DNA from: a virus
Lineage: Duplodnaviria; Heunggongvirae; Uroviricota; Caudoviricetes
Length of the DNA: 31,163 nucleotides
IMG/VR virus record: IMGVR_UViG_2541047775_000006
Strand: one strand, 5' to 3'
A program made the position numbers and the translations under genes. Positions within the stretch are counted from its first letter, which is position 1. Each line of letters opens with the position of its first letter. The notes under the pieces are model-generated. The model made no database searches, was not told the origin of the DNA, and was given only the letters and a program-made list of their open reading frames with translations. Shown here one piece after another: positions 18,755-26,276 of this stretch.

Positions 18755-19144
18755 TCAGGCGGCTGCACCCGCCGTTTTCTCGTACTTACTGATAGTGATC
18801 TCGACCTTCCCTTCCGGGATAACTGGTCCCCACTCCACCAGCATTCTTTTCACCTGGCTGTCGTCTTCCCACACACCCGCGTGGGTCAGGGCGTCAAACA
18901 GCGCCTTGTTATAGTTGTCCAGATCGCGGATCCGGTTATCCGGAGGAAACAACACGATCTCCACTGAAGCAGGTGCCGACGTTGGTTTCGGCAGACGACG
19001 TAACTGCTCAACTATTGCTGTGCACGCCGCACTCTGGAATTTTCGCCCCGCCGCGCTTATCAGGCTCTTACCAGCAAATGCCCCTTTGTTGGGGTGTCGC
19101 CAGTAGGTGTTCACGCTGGGCGGAAAAGGCAGTATTAGCTTCAT
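18755..19144 (-). CDS. rusA: Holliday junction resolvase RusA
   Basis: 129 aa MKLILPFPPSVNTYWRH...RDLDNYNKALFDALTHAGVWEDDSQV, matching RusA catalytic core; ATGA coupling with dam. Confidence 0.85.
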   Translation of the reverse strand: MKLILPFPPSVNTYWRHPNKGAFAGKSLISAAGRKFQSAACTAIVEQLRRLPKPTSAPASVEIVLFPPDNRIRDLDNYNKALFDALTHAGVWEDDSQVKRMLVEWGPVIPEGKVEITISKYEKTAGAAA

Positions 19145-19794
19145 GCCACCATCTCCCTGACCAGTTTTTCCGCCTGCTGGCGAACCTGCGCCAGAAATGC
19201 CTCACCACATGCCTCAAGTTCATCGCGCCCGATGTAGCTGATTGCCGCTCCCTTCCAGGTCTTGTCGAAAACAGCAATAGCACCAGCGAAGAAAGCACCT
19301 GTTGGCACCTGCTTTTCGTCTTTCGGGATAAACCAGGCAGGCAGTTCAAAACCAATACGCCCGCGAATAAAAGCAATATGGTCCGCATCTTCCGGCCACC
19401 ACACTTCGCTGGTGGCAGCTTTGATCAGGAAAACATAGCGCCCGCCCTTATCACGCATGGCACTGGCATGTTTCATGATGTAACGCATGCCGGTGATGTA
19501 TTGCCCCTCATGCTGACTGGCGCGGCTGTATGGGGGATTACCAAAGGCAGCACCTTTAAGCTCCGCAAGACGTTCTGACCAGTCATGCGCCAGCGCGTTG
19601 TCTTCCGCCGTGTAATACGCAGCACATTTGGCGTTATCACCGTCAGTAAACAGATCCAGAACAAACGGGCCAAACAGAGTGTTAATTCCCCAGAAAATGT
19701 TGTCCGGCGTGCGCCACTGATCGCCCACTTCCTTCAGTTCATGGGCTGGTTTGTTCCGCAGTTCCACCAGTGCCTGACAATATTTATTACTCAT
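19141..19794 (-). CDS. phage DNA N6-adenine methyltransferase (Dam family)
   Basis: NPPY motif (AAFGNPPYS); start ATG 19794 overlaps upstream stop (TAATG). Track start 19827 is 11 codons upstream. Confidence 0.8.
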   Translation of the reverse strand: MSNKYCQALVELRNKPAHELKEVGDQWRTPDNIFWGINTLFGPFVLDLFTDGDNAKCAAYYTAEDNALAHDWSERLAELKGAAFGNPPYSRASQHEGQYITGMRYIMKHASAMRDKGGRYVFLIKAATSEVWWPEDADHIAFIRGRIGFELPAWFIPKDEKQVPTGAFFAGAIAVFDKTWKGAAISYIGRDELEACGEAFLAQVRQQAEKLVREMVA

Positions 19795-20282
19795 TAAGCC
19801 CCCACGTAATTCCCTGACAGATACCACTCTTCACCCGATGCTGCGCGCTTGCTGCTTTTCTGTAAGCACTGCTCACGACGCGCCAGAAAATTGTTTCGTT
19901 CTGGCTGGGAGTGGCTTTCACGGAATGCCGCCATCCACACCGTTGCAGCACGACGGTATAAGCCCCTGGACTCCAGTTCTTCAGCATGACGGGTCAGGCA
20001 CAAAATCACCCAGGGGTCGTTAGTGCCGACATAGAAATTGCTCACAGGTATGGTTTCAAGAACAGGTTGCAGTTTCTCCTCCTGCGATATCTCAGCCTGG
20101 TGTGGGAAATGTCTGCGTGTTTTCCCTTCACAACGGTGAGCCACACGCCCACTCTGACGTAACTTGCTTGCTGACTGCAGTACGCGCTGCCGTGAGTAAC
20201 CTGCAAAAGCATCCGCAATGTCTCCGGAAGTACAGCCCGGATGGGCTTCAATGAATTTCTGAACTTCATTCAAAAGACTCAT
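19794..20282 (-). CDS. hypothetical regulator with PerC-like C-terminal motif
   Basis: 162 aa from ATG 20282; motif ESRGLYRRAATVWMAAF resembles PerC/Pch proteins as I recall them. Confidence 0.5.
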   Translation of the reverse strand: MSLLNEVQKFIEAHPGCTSGDIADAFAGYSRQRVLQSASKLRQSGRVAHRCEGKTRRHFPHQAEISQEEKLQPVLETIPVSNFYVGTNDPWVILCLTRHAEELESRGLYRRAATVWMAAFRESHSQPERNNFLARREQCLQKSSKRAASGEEWYLSGNYVGA

Positions 20283-20284
20283 GA

Positions 20285-21226
20285 TCACCCCCTGAATCCT
20301 TCCGGGATCTGGCTGTAGTCCACGTTGTCGTAACTGGCTTTGAAGTACGGGTCTTCACGTTTTTCTGTGTGCGTGCTGACGGACGGCGATAAGCGCAGGG
20401 AAAGCTCATCCCATTTTTCCCGCAACTTCGACGGGCTGAGCACGTTACGGCACCAGAACGGATCACGGCTGACGCGGCTGTACATCTCGCAGATTTGTTT
20501 GTGAGTACGACCATCCTGCACACACATCAGGCGAATTTCGTTTGCCCATGCTGTCCAGTTCGGTTCTTTGGGACGAACCACCTCGCCGTCACATTCGGCG
20601 GCCTGCTCGTACAGGGCGATGATTTTTTTCCAGAGCCACTGTGCGCAGGTCAAATCATCCTGCGTTCCCCACTGGCGCTTTTTAGGGCTGAATACAACCG
20701 CATCAGGATGGCGAGTTAAAAAATCCTGTTCAGCCGTCTGCGTGTCCGGTTGCAAAGCGTCCGGACGAGAAGGTTTTTTATCTGACGGATCATGTTTTGA
20801 TTTTACTGACGGATCCCCGCCAGATTCTGACGGGTGAAAACACGCTTTTTTGCCAGATTTCGACGCATCAAATTTTGACGGGTCAGATTTTGATGCGTCA
20901 GATTTTGACGGGTCAGAATCTGACAGTTGAGAAAATGCCGCAGCCTGAAGCTTCGCAACGTTAAGCTGATAAACATTCGACGCATTGCGGTTACCCTGGC
21001 GACGCGCCTTACGCGTTAACCAGCCTTCTGCTTCCAGCCGTGCGATAGCCGTTCTGACGGTACTCATCCCCGCGCCAATCTGGCGGGCAATGGTTTCAAT
21101 TGATGGCCAGCACACACCCTCGTCATTACTGAAATCAGCCAGACGGGCCATAATTGCCACACTGGATAATTTCATGCCTGACGCTGCGCAACCATCCCAT
21201 ACATAGCCGGTTAATTTGGTGCTCAC
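20285..21226 (-). CDS. replication initiation protein (O-like, N-terminal HTH) containing origin iterons
   Basis: 313 aa; GTG start with AAGGAGGTG SD, GTGA overlap with rha stop. Central low-complexity linker (SDSDPSKSDASKSDPSKFDASKS) is encoded by tandem DNA repeats. Confidence 0.75.
   Translation of the reverse strand: MSTKLTGYVWDGCAASGMKLSSVAIMARLADFSNDEGVCWPSIETIARQIGAGMSTVRTAIARLEAEGWLTRKARRQGNRNASNVYQLNVAKLQAAAFSQLSDSDPSKSDASKSDPSKFDASKSGKKACFHPSESGGDPSVKSKHDPSDKKPSRPDALQPDTQTAEQDFLTRHPDAVVFSPKKRQWGTQDDLTCAQWLWKKIIALYEQAAECDGEVVRPKEPNWTAWANEIRLMCVQDGRTHKQICEMYSRVSRDPFWCRNVLSPSKLREKWDELSLRLSPSVSTHTEKREDPYFKASYDNVDYSQIPEGFRG
20781..20930. repeat. tandem approx. 15-bp iterons (putative replication origin) inside O-like gene
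   Basis: At least 6 tandem copies of CAGATTTTGACGGGT-like units (20821..20929) plus degenerate ACTGACGGATC copies upstream, next to an AT-rich tract. Analogous to lambda ori inside O. Confidence 0.7.
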
Positions 21227-21768
21227 TTACGCACCTCCTTATGCTTTTCGTTCAGTTCCGAGTCCACCAGCCCGGCAACGAATACACCATCGTTGATGTA
21301 GTCGTAGAGCGATGAAGCCAGCGGAGACTGAACTGAAACCAGCATCGGATAAAGTTGTTCTAACCAAACGCGGTGAATTTCAGCCATGTAGAGGTAAACA
21401 ACGTGGGCATTGTGCGCGACACATGAAGTATCAACCTTTCCGATCAGCGCCTGTTCCATCTGGTTAAAGGCATTGATGTATGCCTCTTTGAACCGGGCTG
21501 CACGTTTGCCAGTAAAGCCCATAGCAAGGAACGCGAAGCCATCGCGGGTGATTTGATAGCAAGGTAGTTTGCGGCCTGTGCAATCGGTGTAATCACTGGG
21601 CTGAAAATTCAGCTCAGTGAATTCAACAGAGCACTCAAGCGTCTGGATTTTTTGAATAACGTTTTTGTGCTGCTTGCAGAAATATTCGGCAACGGCCAAA
21701 GAAGAGGTAACAGCCTTCCCATGGATAACATCAATTTTAGGGTGAGTTTGGGTAGGGGTGGTTGCCAT
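21223..21768 (-). CDS. Rha family phage regulatory protein
   Basis: ATG at 21768 with GAGGATG SD gives MATTPTQTHPKIDVIHGKAVTSSLAVAEYF...ITRDGFAFLAMGFTGKRAARFKEAYINAF. Track ORF extends to 22062 through non-coding repeats. Confidence 0.75.
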   Translation of the reverse strand: MATTPTQTHPKIDVIHGKAVTSSLAVAEYFCKQHKNVIQKIQTLECSVEFTELNFQPSDYTDCTGRKLPCYQITRDGFAFLAMGFTGKRAARFKEAYINAFNQMEQALIGKVDTSCVAHNAHVVYLYMAEIHRVWLEQLYPMLVSVQSPLASSLYDYINDGVFVAGLVDSELNEKHKEVRK

Positions 21769-21930
21769 AGTGACATCCTCATGTGCGAATTTTGAAAACT
21801 CACCACATGGGACGCCAATCACAGAGGTGGTGAGACGTACAGGGTTGGCGTAACCGGTCGCACATGACCCCGGCGCATCTTTCGATGCCCCTGCACGCCC
21901 CACCATAATTTGGATGTGAGGAAACGTGCG

Positions 21931-21954
21931 CAAAAAAACCGCTGAAGCGCGGTT
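21931..21954 (-). terminator. terminator-like hairpin (tR1-like) upstream of rha
   Basis: Plus-strand aaaaaaAACCGCtgaagcGCGGTT; on the minus strand a stem then 7 U, about 85 nt downstream of the DUF4222 gene stop. Confidence 0.45.
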
Positions 21955-22039
21955 ATGCGCATGTGCGAATTTCAGGACGCCAATCCCGGCACCCGCTTTA
22001 TAAGGTGCCTGAACAGTGTAACGTCCCGGAATGGCAGAA

Positions 22040-22231
22040 TCAATCATTACTGGTTTGCTCATGATCGTCCCTTATCTCCCTGAACTTTTGCCTGAAATGC
22101 TCAAGTGGGCTGAAGCATTCATGTTCATAGCCTTCACGGAGGTAGATAACCCGTTGTGTTTCCGGCTCCCAACGAATGACTCTGACGGGCACTCCGTGGT
22201 GATCTTTGAACCAGCGGTTAACTTGTCGCAA
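22040..22231 (-). CDS. small hypothetical protein (DUF4222-like)
   Basis: 63 aa [40 protein letters not shown]...; TTG start at 22231 preceded by AAGGAGA at optimal spacing. A paralogue sits at 29157..29399. Confidence 0.6.
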
Positions 22232-22410
22232 AGGACTGTCTCCTTCTGCCGGTTGAAATCACCCACAGCCCACTCTGCAAAGCTGTGGGTTACAATTTCC
22301 CTGTCACCTGGTACATTCACTGCATAGCAATACTCCACCTTCGCTTTTCCACCCGGTACAGGAAGCGCAATCAGTTGCGAGCGACGGTAGTGTGTTGTTA
22401 AACTGTTCAT
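22072..22410 (-). CDS. hypothetical protein; 3' half overlaps next gene out of frame (possible frameshift)
   Basis: ATG at 22410 forms ATGA with upstream stop. N-terminal ~60 aa look protein-like; C-terminal ~50 aa are low-complexity and overlap 22040..22231 by 160 nt. Confidence 0.4.
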
Positions 22411-23229: not shown

Positions 23230-23326
23230 ATGCCCTCCAAACTAAGTTTTATTAGATGTTAATTATCAATCTATCTTAGGTCAATAAAAACTAAGATTAC
23301 TTAGTAATTAAAGAAATGGTGCTCCT
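23230..23326. promoter_or_regulatory. OR-like operator/promoter region (divergent cro and cI promoters)
   Basis: Three 16-bp operator-like sites sharing half-site ACTAAG/CTTAGT: ACTAAGTTTTATTAGA (23241..23256), CTTAGgtcaataaaaaCTAAG (23276..23296), ACTAAGATTACTTAGT (23290..23305). Confidence 0.65.
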
Positions 23327-25193: not shown

Positions 25194-25322
25194 TACCAGT
25201 TTGTACACTTGCTTCCGGCTGGTACCGCTCTTTTTACAAAACAGAGAAGAGCATCACCGGACGACGGGCTCATAACCCAATCCATCCGGGCGGCTGCCAC
25301 CGCAGGTGTTCTTCTCTGTTTT
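25194..25322 (+). promoter_or_regulatory. structured leader of early-left operon: hairpin, boxA-like motif, long stem-loop
   Basis: GGTACCAG...CTGGTACC (25194..25228) followed by GCTCTTTTTACAAAA (boxA-like), then a perfect 13-bp inverted repeat AAAACAGAGAAGA / TCTTCTCTGTTTT (25238..25250 and 25310..25322) enclosing a GC-rich 59-nt loop, ending about 35 nt before the rdgC-like ATG. Confidence 0.5.
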
Positions 25323-25358
25323 GTGGAGAAACTAATACATTGTGCAGAGGAAAATAGA

Positions 25359-26276
25359 ATGAAATTACCAAAATTTCGTAACGCAATTGTGTACCGAGCA
25401 ACATTACCTAGTATACAGGCTATTGAAGGTCATCTTCTCGAACTCCCTTATTCTGAAATCGGGGAAACAGAATTTTCACGGTCCTCTTTTGTAGAGAATC
25501 CTGTCACTGGTGAACTGGTAACTCCGATATCTGGTGGGTACGCAATGGTAATCCGTCATGATCAGAAAATAATTCCCCGACATGTCGTCATGAAAGAAGC
25601 TAATTCTCGAATCCAAACAATCGAAAATATGTCCGGGAATAAATTAAAGCGTGCCGAACGACTGGCCATTATTGATAACGTACGAGTAGATCTATGCAAA
25701 CAGGCATTTGTTAAGTCTACGCTGATTCTTGCATTGTACAGCACTGATGAGAAATTATTGGTAATCAACACAACCAATAAAATAATAGCCGGTATGGTAT
25801 GCGCAATGCTGATTAAGGTTGTCGGTTCAGTGAAAACAGAAACAATCAACATCAGTGATATCAAGAATGGACTGACTACACGCCTGAATAACTACATCAA
25901 TGGTGCAGCCAATGCATTTGAAGGATTCACTGTCGGAAATTATATTCAGCTATCACGCTACGCAGATCAAAAGGAAATTATTCGCTACTCAGCTGAGCAT
26001 GAGTCAATTCAAAGCGAACTGGCCGATAGCCTTAGTAGTAGTTTCACTGCTGATAAAATGGAGTTATCCGGTTGCGGTGTGACCTTCATTCTTACCGAAA
26101 ATTTCCATTTTTCGCGCATCAATACTCAATCTCAGACATTTAATGATGAAGATGATAAAGCATTCCAGTGGCGTCATCAGACTGGCGCTGACCTTTTCCA
26201 ATTCAGCAAGGTAGTTAATTTGATGTGTGACCTTCTTTCTTACAAAGAAGATAAAAGCCAAAATCCAACAACTTAA
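25359..26276 (+). CDS. RdgC-like recombination-associated protein
   Basis: ATG at 25359 with GAGG SD gives MKLPKFRNAIVYRATLP... (RdgC begins MLWFKNLMVYRL as I recall); central VIRHDQKIIPRHVVMKEA...KLKRAERLA parallels RdgC. Track ORF start 25209 lies inside the leader hairpin. Confidence 0.6.
   Translation: MKLPKFRNAIVYRATLPSIQAIEGHLLELPYSEIGETEFSRSSFVENPVTGELVTPISGGYAMVIRHDQKIIPRHVVMKEANSRIQTIENMSGNKLKRAERLAIIDNVRVDLCKQAFVKSTLILALYSTDEKLLVINTTNKIIAGMVCAMLIKVVGSVKTETINISDIKNGLTTRLNNYINGAANAFEGFTVGNYIQLSRYADQKEIIRYSAEHESIQSELADSLSSSFTADKMELSGCGVTFILTENFHFSRINTQSQTFNDEDDKAFQWRHQTGADLFQFSKVVNLMCDLLSYKEDKSQNPTT

Follow-up and report, generated by a model that had tools for sequence, protein, structure and literature searches.

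The prophage contained in the viral sequence record IMGVR_UViG_2541047775_000006 (IMG/VR; Caudoviricetes) very probably carries its origin of replication inside the gene of its own replication initiator. We analysed the whole stretch of 31,163 nucleotides (referred to as the window), which covers the initiator in its surroundings from the tail genes through to the integrase, and locate the putative origin of this SfII/SfIV/mEp460-type lambdoid prophage at approximately 20717-20930, within the part of the gene that codes for the linker of the initiator. According to the listing of open reading frames (ORFs), the gene occupies positions 20285..21226 on the minus strand, starts with GTG and encodes 313 amino acids, which comprise an HTH_36 winged helix, the putatively origin-encoding linker, a C-terminal domain of the lambda O type and a tail of the DnaT type. 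Four comparative lines of evidence lead to this reading, namely the conserved position of a repeat array, the fixation of codons at the DNA level, the covariation of the repeats with the N-terminal domain of the initiator and the homology to lambda O. The same four lines lend support to a preliminary description of this DNA, which had proposed an origin embedded in an O-like gene as in lambda.

An iteron array in the initiator gene

Tandem Repeats Finder, a repeat search, a motif scan and a position weight matrix together delineate an iteron array at 20783..20930, consisting of seven dyad sites and a degenerate half-site. Tandem Repeats Finder reports positions 20854-20917 with a period of 15, 4.3 copies, the consensus CAGATTTTGACGGGT and a score of 86, in addition to a period-30 reading, while the repeat search widens the family to 20806-20928 and finds its units to be internally dyad-symmetric. 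The best description of a unit is the 10-bp palindrome TGACGNRTCA, which is found with at most one mismatch at 20783-20792, 20807-20816, 20828-20837, 20861-20870, 20876-20885, 20891-20900 and 20906-20915. A degenerate copy, the half-site at 20921-20930, brings the total to 7-8 sites. At least six tandem repeats of about 15 bp had been noticed before; the number stands, but strict 15-bp tandem spacing applies to just 4-5 of the 7-8 sites, the remaining three being placed at 33, 21 and 24 bp. A position weight matrix from 346 sites reads WTCTGAY-NC-RTCARAW, an imperfect palindrome of 14-18 bp whose shape suits a dimeric winged-helix binder. In the whole window, 33 matches to TGACGNRTCA were counted compared to 13.1 ± 4.1 in shuffled sequences (0 of 100 shuffles reached 33), and seven of the 33 are packed into 133 bp. 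The array encodes peptides of the DPSKS/DASKS type at residues ~100-150 of the minus-strand initiator ORF. That the repeats code for the low-complexity linker of the initiator, as had been stated earlier, is borne out by the position of the ORF and by the disorder that AlphaFold predicts for this segment.

The two most conserved sites, at 20783-20816 (TGACGGATCA and TGACGGATCC), contain GATC. Of the 70 homologous genes, 69 contain GGATCCGTCA and 45 a second GATCC[GA]TCA, and GATC occurs 9.8 times per kb in the origin region versus 3.6 times per kb over the remainder of the initiator gene. A phage Dam methylase gene is situated one or two genes downstream of the initiator in most loci, and Dam methylation may possibly control the origin through these GATC sites. 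Involvement of DnaA boxes was rejected, since matches to TTWTNCACA occur only at chance level in the window and none is located in 20700-20950.

Conservation and selection at the DNA level

For comparison, 80 related loci were fetched, one genome per species, which together with the window gives 81 loci; 70 genes share the window-type N-terminal domain (MS[TV]KL..WDGCA..MARLAD). Across these 70 genes, the motif TGAYNCGTCA (coding strand) clusters at gene nucleotides ~291-470, with 3-8 sites in 66 genes and 1-2 sites in four. The position of the array is conserved in Escherichia, Shigella, Pantoea, Erwinia, Providencia, Proteus, Yersinia, Rahnella, Edwardsiella and others, regardless of the C-terminal domain, and the three isolated sites keep their 21/24-bp spacing across genera. 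The motif is found 21.9 times per kb in the linkers of the 70 homologues, whereas 550 kb of flanking DNA contain it at 0.41 per kb. Four enterobacterial-type prophage replication modules (L045, L056, L067 and L077) were obtained from assemblies labelled Vagococcus, Chryseobacterium, Martelella and Bacillota metagenome-assembled genome (MAG); these contigs are probably contaminated or misbinned.

The codons of the linker are fixed to a degree that is not seen in the rest of the gene. In the linker motif D[PATS]S, serine is encoded by TCA in 323 of 346 cases (93%), compared to 471 of 2174 (22%) elsewhere in the same genes. Fifty genes with at most 93% identity use GAT for D138 (100%), CCG for P139 (96%), TCA for S140 (100%), GTA for V141 (98%) and TCA for S143 (100%), whereas the commonest codon averages just 0.48 in the conserved four- and sixfold-degenerate columns of the N-terminal domain. 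The synonymous-fixation analysis of 16 non-redundant full-length homologues gave the same localisation: the fraction of the commonest synonymous codon amounts to 0.85-0.92 at residues ~105-170 versus 0.5-0.62 on both sides (Mann-Whitney p = 1.3e-13), and amino-acid conservation is lower in these residues than in the flanking domains. As the 70 genes are phylogenetically related, p-values are inflated, but the localisation of the signal is still clear.

Based on this codon analysis, the stretch under synonymous-site constraint extends over 20717..20926, and we take it as the full cis-acting origin. It reaches ~65 bp past the last iteron. The portion beyond the iterons (20717-20782) is GC-richer and includes short palindromes (GTCCGGAC and TTGCAA); loading or unwinding might take place here, or a host factor might bind.

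A modestly AT-rich tract, which is our candidate for the unwinding element, was found at 20768..20807 (70% AT over 40 bp) and spans the two most conserved, GATC-containing sites. It is the best 40-bp AT window of the region and lies at the 97.7th percentile of the whole window, while in lambda the 40 bp that immediately follow iteron 4 are 80% AT. The side of the iterons on which the tract lies is the same as in lambda, i.e. downstream along transcription of the initiator gene. The AT-rich tract said to flank the array in the preliminary description hence exists as an AT-richer stretch, but it is modest and overlaps the last two iteron sites instead of flanking the array.

Initiator architecture and covariation with the repeats

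The full-length initiator matches PHROG 391 ('replication initiation O-like', 1e-134), and its gene shares 98% nucleotide identity with the replication genes that the Shigella phages SfIV and SfII carry, whose annotation varies between replication protein O and primosomal protein. In the AlphaFold2 model, linker residues 102-160 are disordered (predicted local distance difference test score, pLDDT, ~30), with confident domains on either side (residues 1-98 and 162-280). The N-terminal domain (residues 1-98; 20933..21226, minus strand) is a winged helix of the HTH_36 type, as judged from the Pfam match (PF13730, 4e-11), the helices and beta-wing of the AlphaFold model and Foldseek, and presumably binds the iterons, given its co-occurrence with the TGAYNCGTCA array in the 70 genes. 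Its Foldseek matches are MarR-type winged-helix DNA binders, some of which were solved on DNA; with the full-length model, Foldseek finds only winged-helix regulators, as the N-terminal domain dominates. A phmmer search of the whole initiator against PDB sequences returned MarR-type winged-helix proteins only and no DnaT, and a profile of the C-terminal domain yielded nothing meaningful against the PDB.

The helical C-terminal domain (residues 162-280; 20387..20743, minus strand) shares homology with the corresponding domain in lambda O (tblastn E 7e-23; 36% identity across 149 amino acids; 37% identity in the alignment), with the match pattern WGT..DLT.A.W ... WANxIRLM..DGR.H ... FW..NVLSP.KLRxKW. 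The gene had been called O-like before, and the domain search of its C-terminus confirms this for the C-terminal domain; the N-terminus matches HTH_36 instead of Phage_rep_O (PF04492), the family that represents the N-terminus of lambda O.

The repeat sequence covaries with the N-terminal DNA-binding domain. In phiNP, the N-terminal domain of the window initiator and the same 15-bp repeats are combined with a different C-terminal domain. Conversely, mEp460_4F5 shares the C-terminal half (96% nucleotide identity) and has a different N-terminal domain, together with repeats of 23 bp x 2.5 and 12 bp x 2.7. Four further loci (L017, L075, L082 and L083) have a window-type C-terminal domain, other N-terminal domains and, in the equivalent place, 4-7 repeats of their own with a length of 22-23 bp. 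In the lambda family, the iteron type likewise follows the N-terminal domain of the initiator. Twelve IMG/VR contigs with the same C-terminal domain and an mEp460-type N-terminal domain contain zero sites of the TGACGNRTCA type.

These data also bear on another reading, according to which the repeats are a slippage-prone low-complexity linker without any role in cis, and the origin is located elsewhere or initiation depends on recombination or restart and needs no fixed origin. Alleles with at least 97% identity (IMG/VR, L087-L166) do differ in copy number in 15-bp steps, with 6, 7, 8 or 9 sites corresponding to proteins of 308, 313, 318 or 323 amino acids; the linker is predicted to be disordered; and the early-left operon encodes an RdgC-like, recombination-associated protein (25209-26276, plus strand; PF04381, 9e-31). 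Yet synonymous sites are nearly fixed exactly in this segment, where amino-acid conservation is lower than in the folded domains, and the strong preference for TCA, the dyad symmetry of the units, the switch of repeat type along with the N-terminal DNA-binding domain and the conserved spacing of the three isolated sites across genera all speak against a mere linker. We thus consider this reading highly improbable and retain the origin within the linker-coding part.

Absence of a helicase loader

The preliminary description had noted that no P or helicase-loader homologue follows the initiator gene and had suggested a different route of helicase recruitment. The observation holds. In tblastn searches of the window with lambda P, a P-like protein, E. 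coli DnaC, a phage DnaC-like protein and DnaB, no homologue was detected (best E 0.006 over 19 residues), and Pfam revealed no P, DnaC or DnaB homologue among the early-left genes. The position directly 3' of the initiator is not occupied by a gene of the P family (PF06992). Instead, a gene for a PerC-like protein (19794..20288, minus strand; PerC PF06069, 6e-9), whose start overlaps the initiator stop codon, and a gene for a phage Dam (N6-adenine) methyltransferase (19141..19827, minus strand; PF05869, 6e-45) are found there, in agreement with what had been described. The prophage thus belongs to the O-only type, with an O homologue and neither helicase, loader nor primase in the early region. 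In the part of a recent survey that deals with such modules, 34 of 314 lambdoid phages are listed as encoding an O homologue only, none of them studied and their replication not understood (PMC12315714).

Loader function could in principle reside in a non-homologous phage gene nearby. Besides the PerC-like gene, candidates are the Rha/Ash regulator gene, which lies directly upstream of the initiator and shares its rightward operon (21223..22062, minus strand; Phage_pRha 2e-32, Phage_ASH 1e-14) and an ORF of 112 amino acids without Pfam match (22072-22410, minus strand). The overlap of the PerC-like gene with the initiator stop codon resembles that of P with O, and the 112-amino-acid ORF belongs to a family of ~110-amino-acid ORFs that is present upstream of the initiator in 33 of 50 loci with a DnaT-type tail. 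However, the cluster of PerC-like ORFs has just 20 members over all 81 loci and is not a conserved partner; the gene after the initiator varies among loci (Dam, other methylases, KilA-N or nothing). The ~110-amino-acid ORF is absent from 17 of the 50 DnaT-tail loci and present in modules of the P and DnaC types as well, and SfIV has no Rha/Ash gene beside the same initiator. In SfIV, an ORF of the ~110-amino-acid family directly abuts the initiator gene. No other neighbouring gene on either side of the initiator is consistently conserved among the 81 loci. As none of the three candidates is conserved with DnaT-tail initiators, we rejected them as hidden loaders and regard loader function from a nearby gene of this kind as very unlikely.

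A DnaT-type tail and the tail-loader rule

What tells most about a possible alternative helicase route was overlooked in the preliminary description and is found at the extreme C-terminus of the initiator. Its last residues (302-313; VDYSQIPEGFRG; 20288..20323, minus strand) form a DnaT-type tail, presumably a peptide for docking on a host factor. SQIPEGFRG at the end of the initiator and SQIPPGFRG at the C-terminus of E. coli DnaT are identical in 8 of 9 residues, and the tail peptide S..D..IP.GFRG is invariant in 18 DnaT orthologues. When the initiator was compared to DnaT with hhalign, the tail alone was aligned (33 columns, probability 75%, E 2.6e-5), and the use of a more diverse DnaT_C alignment again gave the tail alone (18 columns, probability 91%, E 1e-6). 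As both runs align just the tail, no resemblance to DnaT is detectable in the helical C-terminal domain. A homology of the whole C-terminal domain to the three-helix bundle of DnaT had been considered because of a single BLASTP fragment (PNWTAWANEIRLM versus PDWQPDADFIRLA, E 0.79) and was rejected, both hhalign runs being confined to the tail. A link to DnaT is already hinted at by the automated annotation 'primosomal protein I' and by the DopC paper discussed below.

Among the 81 loci, the type of tail predicts whether a phage loader gene is present. All initiators with a GFR[GST] tail lack a P- or DnaC-like gene within 2.6 kb downstream (51/51; 52/52 with a looser tail pattern). By contrast, all eight initiators with a W..PE.WE..L tail are followed by a gene of the lambda P family that overlaps their stop codon (PF06992, 1e-57 to 7e-62). 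The association is significant (Fisher's exact p = 4.5e-10). In L012, which has a lambda-O-like WIDGIE..L tail, a lambda-P-family gene overlaps the initiator stop codon as well. The rule holds inside each of two C-terminal folds: among loci with the lambda-O-type fold, 15 with GFR tail and no loader are opposed to eight with P-type tail and P gene, and in the Phg_2220_C fold 37 GFR-tail loci are opposed to L061 with P-type tail and P. Hence, it is the tail and not the fold that tracks the loader. A profile scan of viral contigs with the C-terminal-domain alignment gave only alleles of at least 97% identity and did not widen the tail-loader test.

One locus from an uncultured Serratia MAG (L078:3777-5412) may represent a third type of tail-loader pairing. 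Its initiator belongs to the same N-terminal family and ends in GGTDDDFI, which resembles the acidic C-terminal tip of SSB, and the overlapping next gene codes for an IstB/DnaC-like AAA+ protein (PF01695). It is the sole GGTDDDFI initiator among the 81 loci.

We also considered that the tail serves another purpose, such as competing with host DnaT to stop replication restart, acting as a degradation or regulatory signal, or mediating self-association. Being a short linear motif within a segment of low model confidence that is probably flexible, the tail would fit such roles, and the finding that removal of DnaT residues 154-179 lowers the cooperativity of single-stranded DNA (ssDNA) binding (PMC4132743) points to a role in self-assembly. 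What such a purpose leaves unexplained is the mutual exclusion of tail and phage loader across two C-terminal folds, and we therefore judge it to be improbable.

When a DnaT profile was searched against 1.84 billion representative proteins, we found many proteins of 270-580 amino acids that have a full DnaT C-terminal domain (~100 residues) and end in DY-x-IP-x-GFRG. Judged from their N-terminal parts and repeat-rich linkers, these proteins look like initiators of mobile elements, in keeping with the published account of DopC as a combination of HTH_36 and a DnaT C-terminal motif (PMC5509034). Examples with a full DnaT-type C-terminal domain and tail are P0350, P0383, P0317 and P0340, whose long linkers are built from repeated peptides, for example SVTPGDSGVTQSVT or NVTRNVT. 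These linkers are probably iteron-encoding too, which suggests that initiators with an origin in the linker and a DnaT C-terminus are widespread.

Proposed mode of replication initiation

Taken together, we suggest the following scenario. Dimers of the HTH_36 winged-helix initiator would bind the 7-8 dyad sites and form a complex similar to an O-some, and the strands would open in the adjacent, modestly AT-rich and synonymously constrained stretch 20717-20807, with transcription from pR running across the origin. The module, which has no helicase or loader of phage origin, would have kept the lambda-O-type C-terminal domain and exchanged its extreme C-terminal peptide for a DnaT tail (DY-x-IP-x-GFRG). 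This tail would then dock the origin-bound initiator on the host partner of the tail of DnaT itself, for which PriA, DnaT or the DnaB-DnaC complex are candidates, so that host DnaB could be loaded without a phage loader. That the DnaT-type tail acts as such a helicase-route adaptor in place of a phage loader is a possibility to which we assign slightly less than an even chance, while the explanation as a whole, comprising the origin and tail docking in place of the loader, appears reasonably probable to us. DnaT is largely confined to gamma-proteobacteria (PMC13220808), which fits the enterobacterial hosts of these phages. In published structures, the C-terminal domain of DnaT docks on PriA and filaments on lagging-strand ssDNA, while the way in which DnaB/DnaC is recruited is stated to be unknown (PMC13377028).

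A number of points weigh against this explanation. The AT-rich element is weak, and homogeneity of the repeats could partly stem from slippage and gene conversion instead of selection. In the literature examined, including the SfIV genome paper, we found no binding or origin-activity data for this initiator family, and neither the SfI nor the SfIV genome paper describes an origin. Likeness of the helical C-terminal domain to DnaT was detected neither with the PDB profile nor with hhalign, and the DnaT literature examined contains no stated function for residues ~165-179. The tails of the initiators do not precisely track the DnaT tail of their host either, as GFRS and GFRT tails are also present in genera with a DnaT ending in GFRG; the idea that the tail strictly imitates the DnaT tail of the local host is hence unsupported and was rejected. 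Moreover, 17 initiators from Providencia, Proteus, Yersinia, Rahnella and Buttiauxella (L014, L018-L022, L024, L043, L054, L059, L065, L066, L070, L079-L081 and L084) have ~90 extra C-terminal residues ending in ..IW(K/Q)...AA, no DnaT tail and no loader gene downstream. The DnaT tail is thus not the only solution of modules without a loader.

A related scenario keeps the origin as described but lets the initiator's C-terminal domain contact DnaB or DnaB-DnaC directly, in the manner of iteron plasmids (pSC101 RepA, R6K pi, RK2 TrfA) and perhaps aided by DnaA, so that the tail is irrelevant to loading. Single winged-helix initiators with tandem iterons that depend on host DnaB-DnaC are well represented by such plasmids; on the other side stand the tail-loader rule, which holds within both C-terminal folds, and the chance-level occurrence of DnaA boxes. 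We regard direct contact of this kind as rather unlikely and prefer docking via the tail.

More tentatively, the last 10-30 residues of lambdoid initiators may be interchangeable adaptor peptides that set the route of helicase delivery. A W..PE.WE..L or DWIYG tail would then be paired with a P loader, an acidic DDDFI tail with a DnaC-like loader, and DY-x-IP-x-GFRG with host PriA, DnaT or DnaB-DnaC, so that no phage loader would be needed; we consider this generalisation, pairings included, doubtful. If true, it explains how O-only lambdoid phages replicate and gives the invariant C-terminal peptide of DnaT a function, namely docking on a partner during helicase loading.

Gene context

The genes around the initiator are arranged in the order cI / cro / CII-like / ... 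/ initiator. A pR-like promoter upstream of cro was assigned to 23256..23284 (minus strand) by a consensus scan, based on a consensus match only (9/12 matches), and transcription from it would traverse the origin. On the 3' side of the initiator, genes for PerC-like, Dam, RusA, KilA-N and DUF968/HNH proteins were identified, and the early-left genes encode, according to Pfam, RdgC-like, YfbR-like, DUF551 and Ead/Ea22 proteins. No recombinase of the Red/RecT type was found among the scanned ORFs of the window. The window initiator begins with GTG at 21226, most fetched homologues having ATG in this place.

Comparison with known systems

Lambda O-P is the textbook model of a phage origin that captures the host helicase. 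Roughly one in ten sequenced lambdoid phages has only the O part, among them the serotype-converting Shigella phages SfII and SfIV as well as relatives of certain Stx phages. The tail-loader rule makes the question of their helicase route experimentally approachable and may reveal the part that DnaT, through its invariant C-terminus, plays in replication restart.

As such, the putative origin is of the ordinary lambda type; its iteron sequence is new, and the N-terminal fold is a different one. Ori-lambda lies mid-gene in O and consists of iterons and an AT-rich tract (PMC7466680). As in ori-lambda and in the six-iteron origins of the Stx phages 933W and P27, the putative origin in the window is situated in the linker between an N-terminal DNA-binding and a C-terminal domain, has multiple dyad-symmetric sites and a promoter-distal AT-richer stretch, and belongs to a gene of the pR operon after cro and cII whose product has a homologous C-terminal domain (37% identity). 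The iterons differ, with 7-8 copies of 10-bp cores at 15-bp spacing compared to four iterons of 18-19 bp at 20-24-bp spacing in lambda. Further differences are the HTH_36 N-terminus instead of Phage_rep_O, the lower AT content (70% versus 80%), the absence of a P gene and the extreme C-terminus, which is DnaT-like in the window and TDWIYGVDL in lambda O.

O-only modules such as those of phage LLS and mEp460_4F5 (Genome Res 2025, PMC12315714) share the single O homologue and the lack of helicase and loader with the window. This architecture is already on record as unexplained in the passage of that paper on O-only modules, which makes no mention of iterons or a DnaT-like tail. Within the literature searched, the map of the putative origin at base level, including its constraint at the DNA level, and the mutual exclusion of DnaT tail and loader appear to be new.

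With primosomal protein I (DnaT) of E. coli, a component of the PriA-PriB-DnaT restart preprimosome, the window initiator has the C-terminal peptide S-x-x-D-x-x-IP-x-GFRG in common. It lacks the N-terminal domain of DnaT, the acidic PriB-binding linker and detectable homology to the three-helix bundle, and in contrast to DnaT it would bind its origin in a sequence-specific manner. In Cellvibrionales/Oceanospirillales, DopC (Brezellec et al. 2017, PMC5509034) likewise combines an HTH_36-type N-terminus with a DnaT-type C-terminus; however, it has no iterons, is always followed by the P-like gene DopE and contains the whole DnaT C-terminal motif, whereas the window initiator has a lambda-O-type helical domain and the tail only. 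The DnaT_C-type initiators of mobile elements have this combination of an HTH_36-type N-terminus with a DnaT-type C-terminus, too, and resemble the window initiator in their repeat-encoded linkers and their DY-x-IP-x-GFRG end. Iteron plasmids (pSC101, R6K, RK2, P1), finally, are similar in having one Rep-type winged-helix initiator and iterons in tandem and in depending on host DnaB-DnaC, while the putative origin in the window differs from theirs in having no DnaA boxes, in its location inside the coding sequence of the initiator and in its lambdoid phage context.

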